A stretch of 52,150 nt of DNA from a virus (taxonomy: Duplodnaviria; Caudoviricetes), in the IMG/VR virus record IMGVR_UViG_3300037200_000348, positions 1 to 52,150 of that record, one strand, 5' to 3'. The position numbers and the translations under genes were made by a program. Under the pieces are notes generated by a model that saw only the letters and a list, made by a program, of their open reading frames with translations, was not told the DNA's origin and made no database searches. Each line of letters begins with the position of its first letter. The stretch's first letter is position 1. Shown here one piece after another: positions 154 to 41,842 of the stretch.

Positions 154-202
154 TAATACTCGTCTAGCTCCCATGGACCCCGGGCGTGCCACCACACGCA
201 CA

Positions 203-952
203 TCATCGCGCCTTCGCGCCCTCAAGCCACTTCCATATCTGATAAACGTGGCGAGCGTCGGCGAGCGCGTCGTGCGCATCGGCGTTTTTGATGCCGGTGA
301 TCGACGCGATTTCCGAGAGCGTCGGCGGCACGAAGACGCCCATGGCGCCCATGAACATCGCCTCGATATCAATGACGTGATAGTGGTATGGGACCTCGCG
401 GTACACTTTACGCAGAAACTGATGATCGAACGTCGGGACTGCACCGACGAGGTAGACCGAGGTCTTTCCGCCATCCGAGAGACGCAGGCAATCTTCGAAG
501 AAATTGTCGAGGGCTTCGCTTATCGGGACCGACCGCGGGCCTACGGCTATTGCGAGGTGTTCCCCATCCCCCCGACGGTCGCGACGAGCGTTCGTGTTGC
601 GCGCGGCCCAGAGGCTGGGGAAGCCATCATAGTCGACGTGATAGTTGCGCTCGCAAACTGCCACAGGACTGTTTGGGACTGGCGCCTCGAATAGCCACGC
701 CATCTGCGTGATGACGTCGCGGTCCGGGTCGAGACCCGTCGTTTCAAGGTCGAGGAACACGTGCCTGATGCGCGGCGGGTTCGCGTCGGTCGTCGGTATG
801 GGTGGACCGCCGCCGACTGCCCCCTGGATGACCTGCACGTACCCCGAAGTGGCGGTCGCCCCGCCTTCAAAGCTAACCTGCGTTCCGATGACGCTTCCAA
901 CGGTCGTTTCGATAATGAGAATCCCTTTATGAGCCAGGGTAGGGGTCGCCAC
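203..952 (-). CDS. DEDDh (DnaQ/oligoribonuclease-like) 3'-5' exonuclease
   Basis: ExoI VFLDLETTGLD, ExoII GAVPTFDHQFL, ExoIII HDALADA. Confidence 0.85.
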   Translation of the reverse strand: MATPTLAHKGILIIETTVGSVIGTQVSFEGGATATSGYVQVIQGAVGGGPPIPTTDANPPRIRHVFLDLETTGLDPDRDVITQMAWLFEAPVPNSPVAVCERNYHVDYDGFPSLWAARNTNARRDRRGDGEHLAIAVGPRSVPISEALDNFFEDCLRLSDGGKTSVYLVGAVPTFDHQFLRKVYREVPYHYHVIDIEAMFMGAMGVFVPPTLSEIASITGIKNADAHDALADARHVYQIWKWLEGAKAR

Positions 953-1166
953 CGAACTCGTAAGAGCCGATGGGCTTGTCGATCGCGAGCCGGTTGACTT
1001 TGCGCTCTAGGACCGCGATGCGCTTGCGCAGTGAGATATTCTCAGTCTCGACTGCGAGCCGCATGCCGCGCTCGCGACGTGCCTCCTCTTCGCAGTCCTT
1101 GACTCGCTTTACGAGGCCCTTTACGAATGTCTCTACGAGGGCGCCGTCCTGGTCGATGTTCGACAC
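927..1166 (-). CDS. small coiled-coil hypothetical protein, probably leaderless
   Basis: GTG start lies 7 nt downstream of a TAGACT -10 box; heptad-like charged sequence. Confidence 0.6.
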   Translation of the reverse strand: MSNIDQDGALVETFVKGLVKRVKDCEEEARRERGMRLAVETENISLRKRIAVLERKVNRLAIDKPIGSYEFGGDPYPGS

Positions 1167-1173
1167 TGCGGAG

Positions 1174-1202
1174 AGTCTACCATTGCGAGCGCTTTTTGTA
1201 AA
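1174..1202 (-). promoter_or_regulatory. sigma70-type promoter (leftward)
   Basis: TTTACA-17nt-TAGACT on the minus strand; spacer contains CGCTCGCA. Confidence 0.65.
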
Positions 1203-1219
1203 GAACCAACTCTAGTCGC

Positions 1220-1248
1220 TTGCTATTTCCTGCTCGCTGCATTATACT
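1220..1248 (+). promoter_or_regulatory. sigma70-type early promoter with GCTCGCT spacer motif
   Basis: TTGCTA-tttcctgctcgctgcat(17)-TATACT followed by GGAGG; near-identical to 15551 and 36608. Confidence 0.8.
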
Positions 1249-1268
1249 GGTGGTGGAGGGAAAACGAC

Positions 1269-1637
1269 ATGGCCACCGCGATCGAGACGCCCCGGCTCTT
1301 CAACGAAGCGGTGTTCATGCCGCGGTTGCGGATGCCGAACCGGGAGATGCCGCTGCGGTACGGGCGGCACGCGCTCGAAGCCGCTCAAAACGATCGGTAC
1401 GGCAACCTGACGCAGTACCTGCCCGAGACGGTGAACCCGACGCTCTGCCAGGTGGTGGAAGCCGAGTTGACCGGCACGAAGCTCACGAAGCTCGTGCTCC
1501 GGAAGACGCTCGGAAACGGCCTCGACCTCGTGCTCGTGCTGACGCCGCAAGACGGCTTCGTACGGACCGTATGGGGACAACAAACGAACGACGCTCACGG
1601 GACACTGAACCGGAACCGGTACGCCACCACTCTCTGA
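1269..1637 (+). CDS. hypothetical phage protein (possible BECR/RelE-like RNase fold)
   Basis: Promoter plus GGAGGG RBS; motifs YGRHALE and DLVLVL...VRTVW. Confidence 0.7.
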   Translation: MATAIETPRLFNEAVFMPRLRMPNREMPLRYGRHALEAAQNDRYGNLTQYLPETVNPTLCQVVEAELTGTKLTKLVLRKTLGNGLDLVLVLTPQDGFVRTVWGQQTNDAHGTLNRNRYATTL

Positions 1638-1689
1638 AAGGACGCGATATGAAACTGTGCCCCTACTACCAGAATCCGGGATTGCCCTG

Positions 1690-1902
1690 ATGAACCTCGG
1701 TCAGCTACTCCGAGAAGAAGGGCTCACCACGCTCGCGGCGATCGACGCGCAACGCGGCGGCGCGAGCCGCTACCAGTACCTCAAGGTCCGCCTCGGTGAG
1801 GTAAACGCCGACCGAATCATGCGGAACCTGGAGGTCGCGTCTTGGACGCAGCGCGGCGCTGAAGCCATCGAAAAAAATCTCGCCAAAGAATTAGGAGGCT
1901 AA
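1690..1902 (+). CDS. hypothetical protein
   Basis: ATG at 1690 in frame with track ORF 1657..1902; phage-like codon usage. Confidence 0.6.
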   Translation: MNLGQLLREEGLTTLAAIDAQRGGASRYQYLKVRLGEVNADRIMRNLEVASWTQRGAEAIEKNLAKELGG

Positions 1903-1905
1903 CCC

Positions 1906-2250
1906 TTGAACACTTATTGGAGAAACCTGTGGAGCGAGTCCGTCGGTAAACTCGCCGAAGCGGCCATCGCCCACTCGGCCTACGTCGAACGCGACGTGCT
2001 CAAAAATCCGGGACGCATGAAGGCTCACAACTGCACCGTGGTGGAGACCGCCGACAACCTCGAAGCGCTCATCGCGGCGGTGCCCGACAGTGACATCCTG
2101 CGAGCCGAAGGCCTCGCCTTCCGCTTCCAAAACATCGCGAACGGCATCGGCGACGCGAAGCTCATCGAGCGCGCGAACGAGGCGATGCGCTCGGTCCGCG
2201 CTCGCGCGGCATATAAGCGCCTCGTCACGCAGCGAGTCAACGGGGCCTAA
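1906..2250 (+). CDS. hypothetical protein
   Basis: AGGAGG RBS upstream; last gene of the plus-strand island. Confidence 0.65.
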   Translation: MNTYWRNLWSESVGKLAEAAIAHSAYVERDVLKNPGRMKAHNCTVVETADNLEALIAAVPDSDILRAEGLAFRFQNIANGIGDAKLIERANEAMRSVRARAAYKRLVTQRVNGA

Positions 2251-2260
2251 AACGTGAGCG

Positions 2261-2290
2261 TTGACGCCGCACGTATGCGCGTGATATATT
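2261..2290 (+). promoter_or_regulatory. promoter upstream of a candidate ncRNA
   Basis: TTGACG-18nt-TATATT with TGn extended -10. Confidence 0.55.
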
Positions 2291-2296
2291 GACCCG

Positions 2297-2409
2297 GCGT
2301 AGAGGTTGGGAAGTGTAGCGCGGCCGTTTTAACCGGCAACACCGAACGCGCTTTGGCGCTCGCAGCGTAACTGCTGCCAACCGCAAGGGCCGCCGAAAGG
2401 CGGCTCTTG
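2297..2409 (+). ncRNA. candidate structured small RNA (~110 nt)
   Basis: Lies between promoter and terminator; stems GGTTGG/CCAACC, AGCGCG/CGCGCT, GCCG/CGGC, GCAG/CTGC; no ORF. Confidence 0.45.
2386..2409. terminator. GC-rich hairpin, likely bidirectional terminator
   Basis: AGGGCCGCC-gaaa-GGCGGCTCT between convergent transcription units. Confidence 0.7.
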
Positions 2410-2717
2410 TCATTCGATGTCGCGGAGCGTGAAGCGCGTCGGCAACTTCTCTGCCGAAAGCGCGTCGAGTTCTTCGAGCGATAGTCCGAGAGGTGAAGTA
2501 CGACCGAGTAGACGTCGCAAAGCTCTTCCCGCGCCCGGGCCAAAGCTACCGGGGCCTTCCCGGTGAGCTTCAAGAGGTCTAGCTCGTCGGCAAGCTCGGC
2601 GACTTCACTGCGGAGATGCGCGATGACGGCGGTGTTCGTCCACGACGATGGCCGCGAGCCCTTGCGATGCATCGCGTCCTCAGCGACGATACGCTTGACG
2701 ACAGACTCGGCCCTCAC
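2410..2717 (-). pseudogene. MazG-like NTP pyrophosphohydrolase, frameshifted near 2490
   Basis: HLRSEVAELADE...REELCDVYSVVLHL; helix continues in another frame (LGLSLEELDALSAEKLPTRF...) to TGA at 2410, directly before the terminator. Confidence 0.6.
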
Positions 2718-3142
2718 TGCTGTTGCGGTCGTCCCGAGAGCGCGGCGTGATTGATGAGAAGATGGAGCGTGTTGTCGGCGATGATGAGGAGCCACACGGC
2801 CATCCATGGTGGCATGTCTTCGCTATAACCTGTATTCGTCGCAAATGGACCGGCAGTGGGATAATACACCGCACATCGTCCGACCTGTTGCCGAATCCAC
2901 GTCCTATGTGTCGTCCAGTTCTTGGCCGCTACGATGAAGCGCGCGAGCCGATAGCGATCGATCGCGGCGTGCGTCGCAAAGATGATGCCGAGGCGCAGTG
3001 GGTTGCGCGTGAGCGCGAGGAAGCTCGCGGTGTATGCGGCGGCGTGGAAGAGCGCCCACCACCACGACTTCGTTTTCTTCGTGGCCATGGCGTCGGTCTG
3101 GAGGATGTAGTCCCCCACAAGGTGAGCGAGAAGCTCGTTCAC
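2714..3142 (-). CDS. DUF3307-family membrane protein
   Basis: LLAHLVGDYILQTD, H...Y, THAAID, DNTLH motifs; GTG start at 3142 overlapping the upstream stop. Confidence 0.8.
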   Translation of the reverse strand: MNELLAHLVGDYILQTDAMATKKTKSWWWALFHAAAYTASFLALTRNPLRLGIIFATHAAIDRYRLARFIVAAKNWTTHRTWIRQQVGRCAVYYPTAGPFATNTGYSEDMPPWMAVWLLIIADNTLHLLINHAALSGRPQQQ

Positions 3143-3357
3143 GGCTTCGAGAAGCCGCCGTCTGGCATGTGACCATCCGTGTGGCACTCGTGATCGTTTG
3201 CGATGGCGGCGGGCATGACGTCGTTCGATAGCCACGCGATGGCCTCTGCGACGGCGTGCGCGTGTCCATGCTGCATCGAAGAAAACATCCTCGATGAGTT
3301 CGTCGGCTTTTTGCTCGATAAAAAACTGCCGCTCACACTGATAGAGATTTGCCCCAC
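3139..3357 (-). CDS. small His-rich hypothetical protein
   Basis: GGAG RBS upstream; GTGA overlap with DUF3307 gene. Confidence 0.55.
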   Translation of the reverse strand: MGQISISVSGSFLSSKKPTNSSRMFSSMQHGHAHAVAEAIAWLSNDVMPAAIANDHECHTDGHMPDGGFSKP

Positions 3358-3449
3358 GCATGTGCTCCAAAAAAGAAAAGCTGGCTACGGAGTCGAGTCC
3401 TAATTGCGCCAGTTCTCGCTCCGCAGCCTAGCCGTTCGATCGTAGCAAG

Positions 3450-4778
3450 TCAGGGCATTGAAGTCAATGGCTTGAGCGGTGCCGACGTCGTGCGCCGTCG
3501 TTGAGTCAGTTCGGTGAGGAGTTGCTCCGTCTGTCGGAGTGCAGGGCTGAAACCGTGAGAATCGGTCAAACGAAAGTCGAGCAAGCCGGGTGGCGAGGTG
3601 CCTTTCGTAACGTGCTGAGTAAGGATACTGGTTGCCAGCACCTCCGCGGCGACAGGCGGAAAGGCATTGCCGATCTGGCGCGCGATGCTCGCACTTCCTC
3701 CCTCAAAGACAAAGCGATCGGGGAAAGACTGGAAACGTGCGCACTCACGCAGGCTGATTGCACGATCCTCGAAAGGGTGGATGAACTCCCTGCTAGACAT
3801 ACTCGTGATTGTGAGCGAGGCACAGCCAGGGTCTAATCGCTTCAGACCGGCGGGCGCTCCGCCCCGACGGTCGGTCGGCATTCCGTCGCGAACTCGACGA
3901 AACGCGCGACTTCGGTAGCTGTCAGGCCAAAGGTGCTCCGGGAGACTGCGTAAGGACTGACCAGGTTTGAGTCGACTCGCCCTTTCGAAGTCGGCTGCCG
4001 ATAAACGGGGCGCAAAGTGCTGACGTGTCCCTTGTTCCACGTTGCTGTGGCGCATAGCTTGATCGTAGTGGCTTTGCGGATCGCGGTGAGCGTAAGGCGA
4101 GAGCGCGGCTACTGTGTCTTGCACCCGCCCCAGTCCGACGATTGCCCCCGCAACTGTCGGCCCGGCGATCGCTCCGCTTTCACTCCGATGTTTCTTGCCT
4201 TCAAAGGAGTGACACGCCGCAGGGAACTCGTAAGGGATGCCAATACTGTTTGCAATAATAAGAACCCGTTTCCGCGCCTGGGGCACGCCGTAACCAGCAA
4301 AATTCGCCTTCTGCAGATTTACAGTGTAGCCGAGAGCGATGAGTTGCTGGACGAAGTCTCGGATGCTCTCGCCACCATTTGACGTGAGCAATCCTTCAAC
4401 GTTTTCGAAGACGATCCAAAGCGGACGTAGACGCTCGACCATGTGCAGGTAGGCGAAGATGAGCCGATTGCGAGGGTCGGAACCGTTCCGCGCTCCTGCG
4501 GTTGAAAAACCTTGGCACGGTGGCCCACCTATCATCGCGAAAGGCCGTGCTTGGGAGAACGTGCGTTCAAGAGTTTGAACAGTCTCGTCCGCCGCTAGGT
4601 CCGCGCATAGTGTATCGGTGCCGAGGTTGCGGCGATAGGTCGCGCAGGCATCGGGCTCAATGTCGATGCCGAGAATGGGCTTGAGGCCCACGGCGGCGAA
4701 TCCCAGCGACAGGCCGCCAGCGCCCGAGAAAAGCGCGATGGTGGAATCAGTTAGGGCCTGACGCAAGGTTTGCTCCAT
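3450..4778 (-). CDS. dcm: C5 cytosine DNA methyltransferase (orphan)
   Basis: Motif I LFSGAGG, IV GGPPCQGFS, VI ENVEGL, VIII QARKR, IX RECARFQSFPD, X QIGNAFPP. Confidence 0.93.
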   Translation of the reverse strand: MEQTLRQALTDSTIALFSGAGGLSLGFAAVGLKPILGIDIEPDACATYRRNLGTDTLCADLAADETVQTLERTFSQARPFAMIGGPPCQGFSTAGARNGSDPRNRLIFAYLHMVERLRPLWIVFENVEGLLTSNGGESIRDFVQQLIALGYTVNLQKANFAGYGVPQARKRVLIIANSIGIPYEFPAACHSFEGKKHRSESGAIAGPTVAGAIVGLGRVQDTVAALSPYAHRDPQSHYDQAMRHSNVEQGTRQHFAPRLSAADFERASRLKPGQSLRSLPEHLWPDSYRSRAFRRVRDGMPTDRRGGAPAGLKRLDPGCASLTITSMSSREFIHPFEDRAISLRECARFQSFPDRFVFEGGSASIARQIGNAFPPVAAEVLATSILTQHVTKGTSPPGLLDFRLTDSHGFSPALRQTEQLLTELTQRRRTTSAPLKPLTSMP

Positions 4779-36019: not shown

Positions 36020-36523
36020 CTAGCTTTCGAGTTCGGCTGCCTTCCGGGCCTTTACTTCAGACGAAGCCTTGCGACGTTCGAGCGCCGCGAGGGCTGCTGC
36101 GCGCTCGTCTTCGATGAGTTTAGCACCAGCCGCTGCCTGCGGCTCGCTCGTGGCGACGTTGCCGGAGCGTAGTGGGGCCGTGAAGACGCCATGGCGCTTC
36201 ATGTCGTGATCGACGGGCATCGGATACGGCAATCCCGCCGGATACCAGTACGTCGGGTCGCCAGCGGCCTCGCAAGCCTTGTTCTCGACCGACTCCACGA
36301 GAAACTTACATTCCTCGGGCGTCATGTAACACTCCCAGTTGAGGAACTGGCGCTCGAAGTCGACCTGCTGGACGGTCGTCTTACCGTCGGTCGTTACCTC
36401 TTCCCACATGCGTTGCGTCTTCGCGCGCACCTCGCGGTACTTCGATCGTACCAGAATCTTGACGGGCGTCTCTTCCGCCGATTGCGCGTCGAGAATGTCT
36501 GACGCACTAGCTTCCTTCACCAT
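36020..36523 (-). CDS. hypothetical virion-module protein
   Basis: GGAGG RBS; position. Confidence 0.6.
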   Translation of the reverse strand: MVKEASASDILDAQSAEETPVKILVRSKYREVRAKTQRMWEEVTTDGKTTVQQVDFERQFLNWECYMTPEECKFLVESVENKACEAAGDPTYWYPAGLPYPMPVDHDMKRHGVFTAPLRSGNVATSEPQAAAGAKLIEDERAAALAALERRKASSEVKARKAAELES

Positions 36524-36607
36524 GCAGGCCTCCGGGTTTTCTTTGGAAAGTCAGTGGATTCCCCGCCCCGCCTGCGCGAGCCTTTTGAAAAACATCGCCA
36601 TCCCGAC

Positions 36608-36636
36608 TTGCTATTTACTGCTCGCTGATATATAAT
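36608..36636 (+). promoter_or_regulatory. early promoter with GCTCGCT motif driving the methyltransferase cassette
   Basis: TTGCTA-tttactgctcgctgata(17)-TATAAT then actggtggaggaaaac, almost identical to the 1220 leader. Confidence 0.85.
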
Positions 36637-36657
36637 ACTGGTGGAGGAAAACTCAAG

Positions 36658-36885
36658 ATGGCAAAGACTGCAAAGGAATGGACCCGCGATGAGTACATCG
36701 CCATGCAAACGGCGAATGTCATGCGCGAGGAGCCCGGTATCACCGAAGCTGCCGCAGCGAAGGTCGCGGACCTTCAGTATCGGACGGGGTTTGCGCACCG
36801 TGGCCTCCTGAACCCGGCGACGGGTGAGGTCGAGGACCTACGTGTCATCATCGCGGAGATGCAAGCGACTCGTGAAGCGCGTTAG
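36658..36885 (+). CDS. small hypothetical protein
   Basis: GGAGG RBS after promoter. Confidence 0.7.
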   Translation: MAKTAKEWTRDEYIAMQTANVMREEPGITEAAAAKVADLQYRTGFAHRGLLNPATGEVEDLRVIIAEMQATREAR

Positions 36886-36891
36886 CAAGGC

Positions 36892-39696
36892 ATGAGGTAT
36901 CTCTCCGTCTGTTCGGGAATCGAAGCAGCAACTGTTGCATGGGGTTCTCTCGGATGGCAGCCCGTCGCGTTTGCCGAGATCGACCCGTTCGCTTGCGCGG
37001 TCCTCGCGCACCACTATCCCGAGGTCCCGAACCTCGGCGACTTTACAAAGATTGGACCCGAAGACGTTGGAGCAATCGACCTTCTTGTTGGCGGAACACC
37101 GTGCTTTGCGTCCGGAACGCTCGTCACGCTCGATCGCGGGTTGGTGCCCATCGAAGAGGTGCGCGTAGGTGACCGCGCCCTGACGCACGAGGGTACGTTC
37201 GAGCGCGTCTCGGCCGTCGGGAGCAAGTCGGCACCGACCGTGCGCGTGCGCGGGCAATCCGGCGACGTCACGACGACCGCCGACCACCGCTTCTGGTCGT
37301 CCAGCACGATGTCGCGTTCGACGCGGCGCGGCGGCGTGGCCGCGCGCGAGACAACCCGCAGCGAACCTGGTTGGACGGCCGCGAAGGACCTCGTCGGCGC
37401 GCACGTCGCGACCCCAACGGTGGTCCCGATGCTTCCCGTCCCGCCCGTGTCCGCCCTCGGACGCGAACGCGAAGGCCCGGCGATCTCGGAGCAGTTTATG
37501 TGGTGCGCGGGGGCGTGGCTAGGTGACGGATGGACGCGCGTATGGGAGGGTGGCCGCAGAGGCGCCGTCGTCGTGTGCGCCGCGCGCGGACCGCAGGCCC
37601 GGGAACTCGAACGCAACATGCGCGACGTGTTCGGGAGCGTCACCCTGACGCAGGAACGCACGACGGAGCGCCTGGCGGCGTATTCGCTCGCGACGGTGCG
37701 CTGGCTACGGGAGAACTTCGGGAGCGGCGCGGCGGGCAAGACCGTTCCGACGTGGTTGCTTGGAGCGCCCGAGGGATTGCGTCGCGCGTTCCTCGCGGGC
37801 TACCTTTTCGCCGACGGGAGCACCATGCCCAACGGCCGCCGATGCACGACCGTCTCGCCGCGCGTGGCCCTTGGGATCGCGATGCTGGCCCACACCCTGG
37901 GATTTTCTACAAGCCGCTACGAGACGCGCGTCGATCCGACGACCGTCATCGAGGGGCGGACCGTCACACAGCGCCCCTGGTGGCAGGTTTCCATCTACGA
38001 CCGCGCGCGTTCGTCCTGGACGGACGGCCGCCACCGCTTCGGCCTTTGCCGTAGCGTCGAACCCACAGGGAGGACCGAGACCGTCCATGACCTCACCGTC
38101 GAACGATCCAACTCTTATGTTGCTGCCGGGCTTGTCGTCCACAACTGCCAAGACTTCTCCGTTGCCGGACTGCGAGCCGGACTTGCGGGCGATCGAGGAC
38201 AACTCGCCATTGAGTTCGCTCGACTTGCTGCGCGTTTACGTCCCCGCTGGCTTATCTGGGAAAATGTCCCCGGTGTTTTGTCCGCAGACAAAGGAGGGGC
38301 CTTTGGAATCTTCCTCGGGGCGCTGGCAGAATGCGGGTATGGGTTCGCCTACAGAGTTTTGGACGCTCAAAACTTCGGAGTCCCACAGCGCCGCCGTCGC
38401 GTGTTCGTTGTCGGACATCTTGGAGAATGGCGACGTGCCGCAGCGGTACTTTTTGAGCGCGAAAGCCTGTCGTGGAATACTCCGCCGCGCAAAAAAGCGC
38501 GGAAAGACATTGCCGGAACTCTTGGAGCGCGCACTTCGGCAGGTGGCGGATTCGGAACCGACTTTGACTTAGACGGCGTCCTCGTCGAGTCGTACAGCCC
38601 TGGCTCGTTCGGCACGTACAGCGAGGGCATAAAAGCCCTGCGGGCGGGAAGCACGGGTGCGGGCAAAGATGCCTTGCTCGTCGCGCATACGTTGCGCGGC
38701 GAGGGTCATGACGCAAGCGAAGACGGCACGGGGCGCGGCGTTCCGCTAACGATCTCATTTGGCGCACAAGCCGACTTGTCGCCTACTCTGCGCGCAATGT
38801 CTCACCGAGACTCGCACCAGAACGCAGGCGGGCAAATTACGGTTCCGTTCTCACAGAACTCGCGCGACGAGATTCGCATGGTGGGCGGAGACGGCGGTGT
38901 CGTCGGAGCGTTGTCGGCCGAAACCGGCATGGTGGCCTTTACGTGTAAGCAAGATGGCACCGACGCAGGCGCAGTATCGCCAACGTTGCGTTCGATGAAT
39001 CACGCGGACAGTCATGCAAATGGCGGGGGGCAAGTCGCCATTACCGTTCCGCTTTCTGGAGTGCGGCGATTGACGCCGCGCGAATGTACTAGGTTGCAGG
39101 GATTCCCGGACGATTACCTTACGATGCGGTATGCCGATGCCGAGGAAGCCCACACCGCTCAAATATTGCACGAATTGTGGAACGCGGCTGGAGCGATCGC
39201 GCGAGAAGGATGGCGACCTGGAGTCGTTGCAGCACTTCTCACGCCGGAAATATTGCTCGCGGGCGTGTATGGCGGATGGGTTTCGTGGAAGCTGGCGAGA
39301 CGATGTGCTGCCGCACGAAGGACGTTACAGGGCGCGGAGCCTTGGCCCGAAGGGTTCGTGTTCGCGTTGCGGGACGGAGAAGAACGTCGATCGTCACCAT
39401 ACCGACGAGAATCCTTTGAACAATGCGCCCGAGAACTTGGTCGACCTCTGTCGTCGGTGCCACCTGGCCGAGCATCGTGTTCCGAGATTCTGCGAAGAAG
39501 CGGGTTGTGGGCGGAAGCACAGGCGCTATGGCCTCTGCGATATGCACTCGCAACGCCTTCGCAGATCGAAAAAGGACGTATCGACGTAGCCGACGGACTG
39601 AAGTACCGCGCGCTCGGCAACAGCATGGCGGTCCCCGTCATGCGCTGGATTGGCGAGCGAATCGCAATGGTTGATGCGATATTTAGTCGCAACTAA
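36892..39696 (+). CDS. phage C5 cytosine methyltransferase with intein, repeated TRD-like modules and C-terminal insertion
   Basis: SVCSGIEA (I), GGTP/CQDFS (IV), WENVPG (VI), PQRRRRVF (VIII), RRLTPRECTRLQGFPD (IX), KYRALGNSMAVPV (X). Confidence 0.92.
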   Translation: MRYLSVCSGIEAATVAWGSLGWQPVAFAEIDPFACAVLAHHYPEVPNLGDFTKIGPEDVGAIDLLVGGTPCFASGTLVTLDRGLVPIEEVRVGDRALTHEGTFERVSAVGSKSAPTVRVRGQSGDVTTTADHRFWSSSTMSRSTRRGGVAARETTRSEPGWTAAKDLVGAHVATPTVVPMLPVPPVSALGREREGPAISEQFMWCAGAWLGDGWTRVWEGGRRGAVVVCAARGPQARELERNMRDVFGSVTLTQERTTERLAAYSLATVRWLRENFGSGAAGKTVPTWLLGAPEGLRRAFLAGYLFADGSTMPNGRRCTTVSPRVALGIAMLAHTLGFSTSRYETRVDPTTVIEGRTVTQRPWWQVSIYDRARSSWTDGRHRFGLCRSVEPTGRTETVHDLTVERSNSYVAAGLVVHNCQDFSVAGLRAGLAGDRGQLAIEFARLAARLRPRWLIWENVPGVLSADKGGAFGIFLGALAECGYGFAYRVLDAQNFGVPQRRRRVFVVGHLGEWRRAAAVLFERESLSWNTPPRKKARKDIAGTLGARTSAGGGFGTDFDLDGVLVESYSPGSFGTYSEGIKALRAGSTGAGKDALLVAHTLRGEGHDASEDGTGRGVPLTISFGAQADLSPTLRAMSHRDSHQNAGGQITVPFSQNSRDEIRMVGGDGGVVGALSAETGMVAFTCKQDGTDAGAVSPTLRSMNHADSHANGGGQVAITVPLSGVRRLTPRECTRLQGFPDDYLTMRYADAEEAHTAQILHELWNAAGAIAREGWRPGVVAALLTPEILLAGVYGGWVSWKLARRCAAARRTLQGAEPWPEGFVFALRDGEERRSSPYRRESFEQCARELGRPLSSVPPGRASCSEILRRSGLWAEAQALWPLRYALATPSQIEKGRIDVADGLKYRALGNSMAVPVMRWIGERIAMVDAIFSRN
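37102..38145 (+). mobile_element. intein (348 aa, LAGLIDADG) inserted before the catalytic Cys
   Basis: TP/CFASGTLV...TTADHRFW...GAWLGDG...FLAGYLFADG...SYVAAGLVVHN/CQD. Confidence 0.93.
38087..38572 (+). CDS. overlapping (+1 frame) EcoHK31I-beta-like methylase subunit; start uncertain (38087, 38117 or 38264)
   Basis: SLSDILE.GDVPQRYFLSAKACRGILRRA..RGK.LP.LL..AL motif in the alternative frame. Confidence 0.65.
   Translation: MTSPSNDPTLMLLPGLSSTTAKTSPLPDCEPDLRAIEDNSPLSSLDLLRVYVPAGLSGKMSPVFCPQTKEGPLESSSGRWQNAGMGSPTEFWTLKTSESHSAAVACSLSDILENGDVPQRYFLSAKACRGILRRAKKRGKTLPELLERALRQVADSEPTLT
39131..39589 (+). CDS. HNH endonuclease nested in the +1 frame of the methyltransferase
   Basis: CTNCG...YCSRAC; CSRCG...DRHHTDENPLNNAPENLVDLCRRCHLAEH. 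Confidence 0.85.
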   Translation: MPMPRKPTPLKYCTNCGTRLERSREKDGDLESLQHFSRRKYCSRACMADGFRGSWRDDVLPHEGRYRARSLGPKGSCSRCGTEKNVDRHHTDENPLNNAPENLVDLCRRCHLAEHRVPRFCEEAGCGRKHRRYGLCDMHSQRLRRSKKDVST

Positions 39697-40712
39697 ATCA
39701 CCATCACGCGCTGATATTTTTCAAGGCCTTTCATTGTGGCCTCATCCTCTTTGTCGAGTGACCCACCGTACGGCTCGCCGCCGTACGATTCCGAGGCGCC
39801 ATCGACCGAAAGCGATGACAGGCCGTTCGTGAGATTATACCATCCCTGGCGCCGCACGCGATTCGCTACGAGGCGCGCTACGCTCGTCGTGATGCCGGTC
39901 GGCATGCCGGATGACCAGTCGATCGGCGACGCACCCGTACCGTCACCCTTGGGCCCGGCAGAGGGATTGATGACCATGCCGGTGTCGGCGTCGAAGACGA
40001 GCGCGGTGCCGTCCTGGTATTTCGTTGGGGGGAAGCCGAACGTGTAATGGACCTCGACGTTGACCTGGCCCGGAATGAAGCTGTAATTCCACATGGGGAG
40101 CGAGAGCCCGGCGTAGAGCACGCGCGGCGGTATCGTAAGAATCCCGCGGCGCGTGTCGACGTACATATCGGCGTCCTCGATGCCGGTTGCATATATCGCG
40201 CCACCCGAAGATTCCGTTGCAGCTACGACGTCGACCGGGAACGTCTCCGGTGGCGTCGGGAGCGGCTCTTGGCCGCCGATGCGCCAATTCTCCGTGCCGT
40301 CGAGGCGACGAATCTTCCCGAAGTGATACCACACCTGCGAGGGAAGAATACGAAGATAGACCGTCGTGACGTCACGGATGTTCTTGTACGGCAACGTGAG
40401 TTGCGGGCCGCCTGGGCCGTCGAAGAACTGCTGGATGAAGCACCAGTCGTACGGCGAGCCCAGAAACTTGACAACGAGGTCGGTCGCCTCTTGGATGTAT
40501 ATATTGACGAGCGACTCGAACGTGTCGAGCGTGCCGTTGCAATCCTTGAAGTTGCCGAGATTCGTGCCGAGTAATAGCGCCTGCACCTGACGCAAGCTGC
40601 AGTGCGGTTGCGCGTCGTCCTCCGCGCGCACGAGCACCCTCGCCGGAATCGTTTGCGGGTACTTCGGCAACGGGAGTGCAGGACGGATGTATGGGCCCGG
40701 AAAGAAGCTCAT
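39693..40712 (-). CDS. head-tail adaptor protein
   Basis: NVEVHYTFGF...MP.GI...V..L...LSSLSVDGASESY; follows MCP. Confidence 0.7.
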   Translation of the reverse strand: MSFFPGPYIRPALPLPKYPQTIPARVLVRAEDDAQPHCSLRQVQALLLGTNLGNFKDCNGTLDTFESLVNIYIQEATDLVVKFLGSPYDWCFIQQFFDGPGGPQLTLPYKNIRDVTTVYLRILPSQVWYHFGKIRRLDGTENWRIGGQEPLPTPPETFPVDVVAATESSGGAIYATGIEDADMYVDTRRGILTIPPRVLYAGLSLPMWNYSFIPGQVNVEVHYTFGFPPTKYQDGTALVFDADTGMVINPSAGPKGDGTGASPIDWSSGMPTGITTSVARLVANRVRRQGWYNLTNGLSSLSVDGASESYGGEPYGGSLDKEDEATMKGLEKYQRVMVI

Positions 40713-40726
40713 GCGCGGGACGTTCG

Positions 40727-41803
40727 CTACGCGGCGGTGGAGTCTTTGGCCGCCTTGCGCTCGCGATACCGGGCAGCCCTGGCGTTGGCCGCAAGACGCT
40801 TCTCTTCGGCGAAGTTCGGCGAGCGCTTTGCCGCCCAGTGAGCGGCGTTCTTCTCGCCGATTTTTCGGCGATGCTCCTTCGATGGCGGCCCGATGATGCG
40901 GCCGGTGAGCGACGCGGAGATTTTCGCCTTCGTCTCATCGGAGTGCGGCTTCTTTTTCATCCCGGTGATCGTTGCCACGCGCTTCGCGATGTGCTCCGGC
41001 GACTGCTTGCGCCCTGTGTTCGCGGCGATCGTGGCCGCACGGCATTCGGGCGAGATGCGCGCCCATGGCTGCCCGCGATTCGCGTCGCCTATCTTGCGCC
41101 GATGCTCTTCCGTTAAGGGTTTCCCGAGCTTCGCTTGGCGCATAAGCTCGCGCGTCTCGGCGCTTGGACTCTGGCCACGCGCCCACTCAGCGAAGGCCAC
41201 GGTGACCTCGGGGTGCTCTTCGCGATAGCGGCGCAACGAGACGCTGATTTTCGCGCGCACCTCGGGTGTATGAAGATGCGCCGGAGCGCGGCCCTGCATC
41301 GCCGCCGTCGCCTTGGCGCGGGCCTCTGGGGTATTCAGGCGCTCGTGGGAGGCGGTTTCGATCGAGTGACGGCGATGAGCTTCGCGGCCCTCTTCGGTGT
41401 AGCCAGCCTTAATTGCGGCGGCGCGGCGAGCGATGTTCTCGGCAACCTTCCAGTACACGCTATGGAAAGCGCTACCCTTGGCCTTACATTCGTCGGATTG
41501 GGGAACGCCGAAACGCGAGCCAGCGACCTGCGCGACATTGTAGACCGGCTTCCAAAGGTCGATGTATGCCTGCTCGCGCTCGATGAGCCTGGACTGCCCA
41601 GCAACCTCTTCGAGAACGCTAAACTCGAAGGCGTCTGGACCGTACTTGTTCCAAGAATTTTGGAGGTACTTCGCCGGGTGATTGCCGCGCCTGAGAACGT
41701 ACCGATGCTGCTTCCATCTGGTCGGTATATTCACAGAACTTCCGACGTATGAATTGCCGCTCTCGCGATGCCGGATAAGATAAATGCCGCTCGCAACTTT
41801 CAT
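40727..41803 (-). CDS. GIY-YIG homing endonuclease with NUMOD3-like repeats
   Basis: SGIYLI...SYVGSS, LQNSWNKYG, REQ.YID...P.YN; repeated H(T/S)EE.R.KI; start 41803 preferred because the 41815 ATG overlaps the -10 box. Confidence 0.9.
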   Translation of the reverse strand: MKVASGIYLIRHRESGNSYVGSSVNIPTRWKQHRYVLRRGNHPAKYLQNSWNKYGPDAFEFSVLEEVAGQSRLIEREQAYIDLWKPVYNVAQVAGSRFGVPQSDECKAKGSAFHSVYWKVAENIARRAAAIKAGYTEEGREAHRRHSIETASHERLNTPEARAKATAAMQGRAPAHLHTPEVRAKISVSLRRYREEHPEVTVAFAEWARGQSPSAETRELMRQAKLGKPLTEEHRRKIGDANRGQPWARISPECRAATIAANTGRKQSPEHIAKRVATITGMKKKPHSDETKAKISASLTGRIIGPPSKEHRRKIGEKNAAHWAAKRSPNFAEEKRLAANARAARYRERKAAKDSTAA

Positions 41804-41813
41804 TGTGAACGGC

Positions 41814-41842
41814 ATTGTACCACTCTTTGACTTTCTTTACAA
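41814..41842 (-). promoter_or_regulatory. promoter of the GIY-YIG gene
   Basis: TTGTAA-17nt-TACAAT with TGn; spacer contains AAAGTCAAA. Confidence 0.65.

Follow-up and report, generated by a model that had tools for sequence, protein, structure and literature searches.

A probable selfish HNH cassette with a read-through host frame in phage C5 DNA methyltransferase genes

How can a homing endonuclease gene lie within a conserved gene when neither an intron nor an intein surrounds it? To our knowledge, homing endonucleases are thought to persist in essential or conserved genes only within a self-splicing intron or an intein. The question is raised by a locus in the IMG/VR virus record IMGVR_UViG_3300037200_000348 (52,150 bases, completeness estimate 57%; "the window" below is this whole stretch), where an open reading frame (ORF) for a C5 DNA methyltransferase, here also called methylase, contains a complete HNH endonuclease ORF in its +1 frame. 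The best overall explanation, and in our judgement a highly probable one, is a selfish HNH cassette with a read-through host frame. The features on which the argument turns are listed here; alleles with and without the insertion are called filled and empty.

36892..39696, plus strand: C5 DNA methyltransferase ORF, 934 residues, matching PF00145 (E 9e-49) in three stretches and spanning an intein and the HNH insertion
39064..39117, plus strand: motif IX region, RRLTPRECTRLQGFPDDY, directly 5' of the insertion
39118..39591, plus strand: inserted segment, 158 host-frame codons with no methylase-frame stop, where empty alleles have about 11 codons (TLIPYRGKPAA)
39118..39130, plus strand: 13-nucleotide leader of the element, CTTACGATGCGGT in the window and TTGGAGTTGAAAT, with a GGAG Shine-Dalgarno sequence, in relatives that share the window's insertion site (site A)
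39131..39589, plus strand: HNH endonuclease ORF, 152 residues, ATG to TAG, +1 frame (39131-36892 leaves remainder 1)
39592..39696, plus strand: methylase C-terminal tail with motif X (DGLKYRALGNSMAVPVMRWIGERI), reachable only via read-through of the insertion

Membership of the host gene in the C5 cytosine DNA methyltransferases is borne out both by PF00145, whose six-frame profile matches lie at 36892-37104, 38146-38451 and 38995-39123, and by the ordered motifs I, IV (PCQ), VI (ENV), VIII (QRRRR), IX and X in the 934-residue translation, in which the PCQ of motif IV is regained only once the intein is removed. From the RRLTP of motif IX to the GNS of motif X the window has 184 residues, against 33-40 in insertion-free relatives, which typically read RRLTPRECERLQGFPDDYTLIPYRGKPAADGPRYKALGNS; a RRLTPRECERLQGFPDDYTLIPYRGKPAADGPRY region is present in the empty allele. 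If the commonest empty spacing is taken as 37, the net excess is 147 codons (441 nucleotides), and the HNH ORF measures 459 nucleotides. The initial annotation of this DNA, made from the letters alone, was thus right in its coordinates, in the +1 frame and in describing the insert and the HNH ORF as nearly coextensive, and the alignment with insertion-free homologues that it proposed locates the junctions at DDY (5') and before ADG (3'). On the 5' side, filled and empty alleles diverge directly after the DDY codon, and the ATG follows 13 nucleotides further on; on the 3' side, the TAG lies 1-2 codons before an ADG that aligns with the AADGPRY of the empty allele. The host-frame peptide of the insert has 85 matches at E ≤ 0.001 among 1.84 billion cluster representatives, 76 of them with PF00145. 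In an AlphaFold2 model of a 658-residue intein-less relative (insert 98% identical), the catalytic domain and the motif X helix are confident, and the host-frame insert is a run of helices with predicted local distance difference test (pLDDT) values of 46-81.

The HNH ORF encodes an HNH core flanked by a zinc ribbon on the N-terminal side and a Cys/His finger on the C-terminal side. Its core residues are C77, C80, H89, H90, N102, C107, C110 and H115, so that the catalytic and metal-binding pattern CxxC...HH...N...N...CxxC...H is present, with N98 conserved in at least 90% of 66 aligned sequences. Across these 66 sequences 11 Cys, His or Asn columns are invariant, and the window copy keeps all of them. 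PF01844 is matched at E ≤ 0.01 by 57 of the 66 family members, the family profile reaches the HNH domains of IscB in the PDB at 4e-5 and 8e-5, and AlphaFold2 models the HNH-frame protein with a mean pLDDT of 92.1.

The openness of the methylase frame across this gene goes beyond chance. When the HNH codons are synonymously resampled under local codon usage (4000 draws), 6.6 host-frame stops are expected in the window and none is seen (P of zero 0.0005); a second codon table gives 5.4 expected and again none (P 0.003), and the third frame over the same insert has one stop. Because a host-frame stop arises where an HNH codon ending in T stands before a codon starting with AA, AG or GA, avoidance can be followed codon by codon: none of the 42 HNH codons of the window that precede such a codon ends in T, compared with 31 of 110 other codons, and the corresponding count in locus L001 is 0 of 71. 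Chance is rejected as the source of the open frame on the resampling probabilities (0.0005-0.003) and on at-risk codons that never end in T. The same holds in 61 loci with an embedded HNH gene, which cover a G+C content of 0.31-0.67: no host-frame stop is observed against 601 expected, the third frame has 498, and 59 loci individually reach P < 0.01. Seven loci of low G+C content (0.31-0.39; L001, L093, L119, L151 and L164-166) have no host-frame stop where 12-22 are expected, and in Staphylococcus phage CUB-EPI_14 (ORF 35% G+C) there is none against about 21.

Diversity by codon position, compared among 12 site-A loci, tells which of the two frames is selected where. Over the overlap it is 0.29, 0.26 and 0.41 at HNH codon positions 1, 2 and 3; read in methylase phase, the same DNA gives the inverted pattern of 0.40, 0.29 and 0.27. 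Since diversity in the overlap follows the HNH codon phase, the HNH protein is under purifying selection, and identity over the overlap DNA is lower in the host frame (0.52) than in the HNH frame (0.64). In the flanks the methylase phase prevails, with 0.52/0.48/0.68 at methylase positions 1/2/3 of the host-only region upstream and 0.35/0.29/0.61 in the tail 3' of the insert. The motif X tail is selected in methylase phase and is therefore still translated in the methylase frame, which needs read-through. The sequence is thus dual-coding and under selection, and on these patterns the host-frame peptide is probably selected mainly for being stop-free. The initial annotation had called the methylase frame stop-free, had suggested a screen for stop avoidance in HNH-bearing loci, and had let its reading stand or fall with conservation of the HNH frame and with a methylase that continues past the insertion. 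The first statement holds beyond chance (0 stops against 5.4-6.6 expected), the screen gives the pooled result above (0 against 601 in 61 loci), the HNH frame is conserved in its 11 invariant columns as in the HNH-phase diversity of the overlap, and the tail (0.35/0.29/0.61) is still selected in the methylase frame.

Most copies of the element also carry a translation signal of their own. The energy of the anti-Shine-Dalgarno duplex upstream of the start averages -6.6 kcal/mol in 65 distinct copies, whereas 9412 control positions taken from the same host genes average -3.1 (Mann-Whitney P 1e-16); 55% of the copies and 17% of the controls reach -6 or lower. In many copies, that of the staphylococcal phage included, AGGAGG lies 6-10 nucleotides 5' of the ATG, and L004, L005, L076, L104, L107, L110, L111 and L112 all have -5.9. 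An ATG or GTG is kept at the extreme 5' end in nearly all copies. The leader is unlike the empty allele, and the Shine-Dalgarno signal therefore arrives with the cassette.

The arrangement recurs widely. A tblastn search of the HNH protein against 50,697 phage records finds 11 records at E ≤ 0.001, the best being that of phage CUB-EPI_14 (41% identity over 99% of the query), where the match falls in the +1 frame within the annotated DNA-cytosine methyltransferase gp45. Komagataeibacter phage phiKX1 has the same nested arrangement, its pieces being annotated separately. In this record (L002, LC644975), 1863-3519 is annotated as separate hypothetical proteins; a 548-residue ORF bearing C5 methylase motifs runs on through the HNH ORF (3001-3519), and in another frame a third long ORF (1873-2997), which has WPTP repeats and LMGFP, shares DNA with the methylase. 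When viral and genome contigs are also scanned, using the HNH-family alignment, the loci with an HNH relative total 96. In 80 of them the HNH gene is nested in a longer ORF and always in the same relative frame, +1 to the host; the window methylase is matched in that frame by tblastn in 54 of the 80, and 24 of the remaining 26 have a downstream GN[SA] resembling motif X. Pfam assigns nine of ten host ORFs to PF00145, the tenth (L175) being a terminase with inteins. The 16 un-nested loci are more distantly related, and their stops in that frame number 1-33. Genome bins carrying loci are labelled Actinomycetes, Bacillota, Treponema, Lentisphaerae and Dehalococcoidales. The family uses at least four insertion sites, and at every one the host-frame peptide begins with an NAT codon, which provides the AT of the HNH ATG:

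After QGFPDDY: site of the window (site A)
Just before VRRLTP..RLQGF: site in the staphylococcal phage and many others
Before RVGRLRGYGNAI: site in methylases of the CRDGKWRPVEP type
Before RVDRLKxLGNA: site in another sub-family

Weak HNH relatives also occur in Brucella phages, e.g., at 3455-3736 of KJ133688 (34% identity over 76 residues, E 0.002). In Brucella Tb-like phages they lie at or across the annotated boundary of the terminase large subunit and HNH genes, and in some Brucella phage records the weak HNH match lies under features annotated only as terminase.

The distribution of the insert among methylases is patchy. On viral contigs only one of 80 related methylase loci (L076) has it and 79 do not. 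In a maximum-likelihood tree built by a quick search from 83 methylases (387 columns after removal of those of the insert, 17 filled rows), the filled or empty state changes nine times, at least six of the changes being forced by well-supported (starred) branches, and filled rows adjoin empty ones, as L110 does L048 (support 97). A contig of run X5 carries an HNH segment 97% identical to that of the window (17 differences in 596 nucleotides) between methylase flanks that are about 78-83% identical. The same contig skips 1044 nucleotides (37101-38144) exactly, and an intein-less, HNH-filled allele thus exists as DNA. Loose contig ends in runs X2 and X5 read KPAADG(P/N)RY, the empty form; joints in run X4 from 39117 to 39610 and from 39117 to 39625, with 26 letters on the shorter side and an unknown stretch between, were not counted as evidence for a precise empty allele. 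At the Glu position of EC-E-RLQGF, none of 12 distinct filled alleles has Glu compared with 61 of 64 distinct empty ones, a difference that would fit co-conversion or target immunity. The motif IX region (39064..39117) probably includes or adjoins the nuclease target in empty alleles.

The cassette would be self-contained: a gene for an HNH homing-type endonuclease behind a short leader that normally includes a Shine-Dalgarno sequence, inserted in the hinge that joins motif IX to motif X in a phage C5 methyltransferase gene. Stops are kept out of the frame that lies one base upstream of the HNH frame, and the cassette sits in phase; methylase ribosomes would read straight through, add about 147 residues to a surface linker and finish motif X. 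The added residues are predicted, with modest confidence, to be helical. The nuclease would be made separately by internal initiation at its own ATG and would cut insertion-free alleles near the conserved motif IX sequence, and repair from the filled allele would copy the cassette together with some flanking sequence. Both proteins would then be made, the nuclease being active on empty alleles and the methylase functional with its loop.

A splicing element in the insert itself finds no support. An Rfam scan of 36500-40200 at E up to 10 returns three chance-level matches (all E ≥ 1.4), none of them an intron. The early claim that a group I intron core has no room here is upheld, because the net insertion is 441 nucleotides and the ORF 459; group I and group II introns are rejected for want of a covariance-model match and of space for a catalytic core. 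RNA splicing of the insert is also argued against because selection for an open host frame would then be pointless. The host-frame peptide matches no Pfam family at E ≤ 0.1 and no intein domain among them, on which an intein or other known domain in the peptide is rejected, and the insert is followed by Asp or Pro rather than by Cys, Ser or Thr. The accompanying claim that intein motifs are missing thus stands for the insert and fails for the gene, which contains an intein that had been overlooked:

37102..38145, plus strand: LAGLIDADG intein, 348 residues, in motif IV (junctions GGTP/CFASG and VVHN/CQDFS)

This intein has a Hint domain (Hint_2, 33.4 bits; cut-off 28.4), LAGLIDADG_3 (25.9 bits; cut-off 22.5), a Cys at position 1, a His-Asn end followed by Cys at +1, and an allele without it (run X5). 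Its G+C content is 0.70-0.74, against about 0.58-0.62 around it. Related inteins are found in methylases of P1-like, Propionibacterium and Mycobacterium phages.

Other accounts of the open frame have to be set against these data. It might be a mere by-product of high G+C content, the HNH gene disrupting, or sitting in, a decaying methylase with no selection for read-through. The window itself would allow this, with about 59% G+C across the methylase ORF, several other frames there that hold ORFs of 80-177 codons, and a P for the window alone of only 0.003 under the second codon table. However, relatives with a G+C content of 0.31-0.39 are equally free of stops where 12-22 are expected, the third frame is not spared (498 stops), un-nested relatives have 1-33 stops in the frame concerned, and the downstream tail keeps its methylase-phase selection; the by-product account is scarcely credible. 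It is very improbable that the insert is removed after all, by an unrecognised self-splicing intron or a new kind of protein-splicing element. Homing HNH genes do usually reside in group I introns, such as that of I-HmuI, and the same gene holds a true intein. For a comparable insertion in mycobacteriophages, the ShiLan domain, both options were weighed and an unknown type could not be excluded (PMC11855218). Against removal stand the lack of any Rfam family at E ≤ 1, a net insertion of 441 nucleotides that is no longer than the 459-nucleotide ORF, a host-frame peptide that has no Hint or other Pfam match and is predicted to be all-helical, and the Asp or Pro after the insert in place of Cys, Ser or Thr; moreover, a spliced intron needs no stop-free host frame, yet the frame is open in 61 of 61 loci.

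The host-frame peptide could instead be a selected part of the methylase, e.g., a helical module that alters specificity or oligomerisation, and the cassette partly domesticated. Recognisable conservation of the peptide in 85 cluster representatives, predicted helices with pLDDT up to 81 and an HNH third-position diversity (0.41) below that of the flanks (0.61-0.68), as added constraint would produce, all agree with such a role. Yet codon periodicity in the overlap belongs to the HNH frame; in methylase phase, variation is greatest at position 1 and smallest at position 3 (0.40/0.29/0.27). Identity is lower in the host frame (0.52) than in the HNH frame (0.64), and a direct reading of the codons shows that conservation of the HNH motif by itself accounts for much of the conservation in the host frame. 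With 79 of 80 close methylase relatives lacking the peptide as well, a domesticated module is unlikely. Finally, the nuclease might be produced as a fusion to the N-terminal part of the methylase by a programmed +1 frameshift at the 5' junction, as the constant +1 relation in all 80 nested loci and the missing Shine-Dalgarno sequence of the window copy would permit. Nearly all copies, though, keep an ATG or GTG at the 5' end, most of them with a Shine-Dalgarno sequence 6-10 nucleotides upstream, and the sequence 5' of the ATG is wholly different among the four sites with no common slippery site evident, which leaves a frameshift product with hardly any probability.

Several observations weigh against the selfish read-through cassette as well. 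The third-position diversity of 0.41 in the overlap, compared with 0.61-0.68 outside it, could reflect recent spread or constraint from the host frame. The embedded loci share descent, and their pooled stop counts (0 against 601) are not independent trials. The methylase tree behind the nine changes of state has a weak backbone, many weak branches and two long-branch warnings, and its 17 filled rows include L072, with a different HNH, and the near-duplicates L104/L105, L107/L108 and L112/L113. The Glu difference could equally come from shared ancestry of the filled alleles. The window HNH protein scores 17.7 bits against PF01844, under the cut-off of 21.4, and a Foldseek search of its model against the PDB gives no match at E ≤ 0.001 (best 0.079), the HNH-bearing entries Cas5-HNH, Cap5, I-HmuI (1u3e, E 0.75) and Gme HNH coming up only as weak rows. 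It is by analogy with its family that the nuclease is credited with activity, a target site and homing. The window copy has no Shine-Dalgarno sequence (+0.3 kcal/mol, a poorer value than in 86% of controls), its leader (CTTACGATGCGGT) having lost the GGAG present in the relatives nearest to it (TTGGAGTTGAAAT), and this copy may be poorly expressed or decaying, yet its ORF and invariant residues are intact; the other genes of the window use such signals only sometimes, and the missing signal is therefore a caution and not a refutation. Among the runs listed as holding 38600-39900, none is on record as RNA.

Further selfish elements and a further overlap lie nearby. A free-standing GIY-YIG homing endonuclease gene with NUMOD3 repeats (40727-41815, minus strand; PF01541 E 7e-12, PF07460 E 2e-14) sits about 1.0 kb downstream of the methylase stop, and intein, HNH gene and GIY-YIG gene make three nuclease-type selfish elements inside 5 kb. 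The virus record has a second C5 methyltransferase gene at 3450-4778 (minus strand; PF00145 E 2e-56), which is uninterrupted. Within the catalytic half of the interrupted methylase there is another long ORF:

37760..38572, plus strand: second +1-frame ORF over motifs V-VIII, overlapping the methylase frame from 38146 on

In 79 of 79 distinct related methylase loci the +1 frame stays open over about 100 codons on the 5' side of motif VIII and about 64 on its 3' side, with one stop against 251 expected; the +2 frame has 432 against 416 expected. Its C-terminal 50 codons or so encode CSLSDILE.GDVPQRYFLSAKAC.GILRRA.KRGK.LP, a peptide that matches no Pfam family. Its conservation exceeds that of the methylase frame across this stretch of DNA, and codon periodicity there is that of the +1 frame. 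The peptide is found in more than 300 database proteins, in some fused to the N-terminal part of a methylase and in others to a target recognition domain with motifs IX-X. Judged by these patterns, the ORF could be an overlapping gene, one part of a two-subunit form or a frameshift product.

A wider reading that joins these observations has, in our estimate, an even chance of being correct. The stop-free alternative frame would then be a heritable and portable property of the cassette, not one evolved after each insertion. One ancient HNH lineage, with its Shine-Dalgarno sequence, an ATG right at the 5' end and a -1 frame cleared of stops, would have carried this "frame transparency" to at least four sites in four sub-families of C5 methylases. 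Its carriers would be phages and prophages whose hosts range from Staphylococcus to Alphaproteobacteria, over a G+C content of 0.31-0.67, the relative frame always being the same and the read-through peptide always homologous; in the catalytic half of the methylase family a second gene may also be concealed in overlap. If so, homing endonucleases would have, besides introns and inteins, a third and general means of residing in any tolerant coding sequence, and gene callers that forbid nested ORFs would systematically miss such cassettes. An element of this type needs neither intron nor intein: the second frame is kept open, and all that the host protein acquires is a loop. Where an annotated phage methylase has a long insert that nothing explains, the insert is probably a nested nuclease gene, and annotation pipelines should check alternative frames. 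The cassettes also offer a natural long dual-coding sequence under selection, and phage CUB-EPI_14 is a cultivable carrier.

Among known systems, seg and mob of phage T4 are free-standing homing endonuclease genes that spread by intronless homing, and mobE splits nrdA of phage Aeh1 into two functional pieces. Like them, the family of the window element has its own translation signals and no splicing element, and presumably spreads by cutting alleles that lack the gene. However, these genes lie between others or split the host ORF, whereas the window host ORF stays in one piece because the alternative frame of the cassette is open. I-HmuI, an HNH endonuclease encoded in a group I intron, is likewise an HNH nuclease within a conserved phage gene, but the window has no intron RNA or room for one.

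The closest parallel, described for methylases of mycobacteriophages, is the ShiLan domain: an insertion free of stops, within which an HNH gene lies concealed in a different frame. It has no intron or intein of its own, is disjunct in distribution and is predicted to form a loop, and its host gene carries an intein too (Arsenault, Gosselin, and Gogarten, Genes 2025, PMC11855218). An earlier paper on this domain is PMC9957025, and a genome announcement reportedly annotates another hidden-HNH case (PMC12613952). The initial annotation had proposed a third route for a homing endonuclease to occupy a conserved gene; selection for the open frame supports the route, and as an idea it had been published (PMC11855218). 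The features of this kind of hidden HNH insertion are all found in the window: an extra segment, free of stops, with an HNH ORF, without intron or intein, and disjunct in distribution. The comparison was made through gp66 of phage Starcevich, a carrier named there. Starcevich and the window share a stop-free methylase insertion with a nearly coextensive HNH ORF in another frame that starts a few nucleotides inside the insert and stops in its last bases, the lack of an intron or intein signature in the insert, a disjunct distribution, a helical loop of low confidence and an intein in the host gene. The differences are in the host, an N6/N4 methylase (PF01555) in Starcevich and a C5 methylase (PF00145) in the window, and in the nuclease: HNH_3 (PF13392, 31.7 bits) of 184-195 residues, in the +2 frame and with a GTG start, as opposed to a PF01844-like protein of 152 residues, in the +1 frame and with an ATG. 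BLASTP aligns only 27 residues of the HNH core of the two nucleases (11 identical, E 0.005 for the pair). Most copies of the window family have a Shine-Dalgarno sequence, whereas for the ShiLan elements no detectable ribosome-binding site was reported and leaderless initiation was proposed (PMC11855218). With host family, HNH type and frame all different and the 27-residue core alone aligning, assignment to the ShiLan family proper is rejected.

Pacc40 gp60, the second example given in PMC11855218, resembles the window in an out-of-frame nuclease-like ORF within a stop-free methylase insertion and in an intein in the same gene, 32% identical to that of the window. Its insertion, however, lies in the helicase part of a helicase-N4/N6 methylase fusion and its nuclease is HNH_3/AP2-like and in the +2 frame; no similarity to the window nuclease was detected, Pacc40 being absent from the matches of the window HNH search. 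Homing endonucleases encoded out of frame or antisense inside inteins, as reported in a preprint (bioRxiv 10.1101/2025.01.02.630785), share with the window a nuclease gene nested in a stretch that the host frame reads through; there the intein reportedly splices the read-through peptide out, whereas in the window nothing removes it. Such out-of-frame intein nucleases are what L175 (786-1637 and 2785-3363, within ORF 173-3505) resembles, where a terminase large subunit at 35% G+C has two inteins whose middles are open in the host frame and each encode an HNH-like protein in another frame, the second HNH_3 (E 4e-10). In L072, the ORF of a related C5 methylase (1740-3899) hides a different nuclease at 3113-3736. 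This PF01844 protein of 207 residues has zinc fingers of the FCS type and is encoded in the +2 frame of a stop-free insert of 187 codons, which lies directly after RLQGFP and a few codons from the window's site. It is an independent case of the same arrangement, and a search for ShiLan relatives of this HNH found no mycobacteriophage methylase among the best 40 of 165 records.

Taken with these systems, the window element is, by sequence comparison, of the same kind as ShiLan, although it belongs to a separate, much larger family specific to C5 methylases, some members of which may already be listed in the ShiLan authors' survey of other phages and prokaryotes. The 2025 description was based on a few mycobacteriophages (PMC11855218). 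What the present family adds is a quantified avoidance of stops, the frame of selection, a ribosome-binding site, several insertion sites with one frame, and breadth of hosts. An HNH lineage of unrelated origin relies on the same device in the cytosine methylases of many phage groups.

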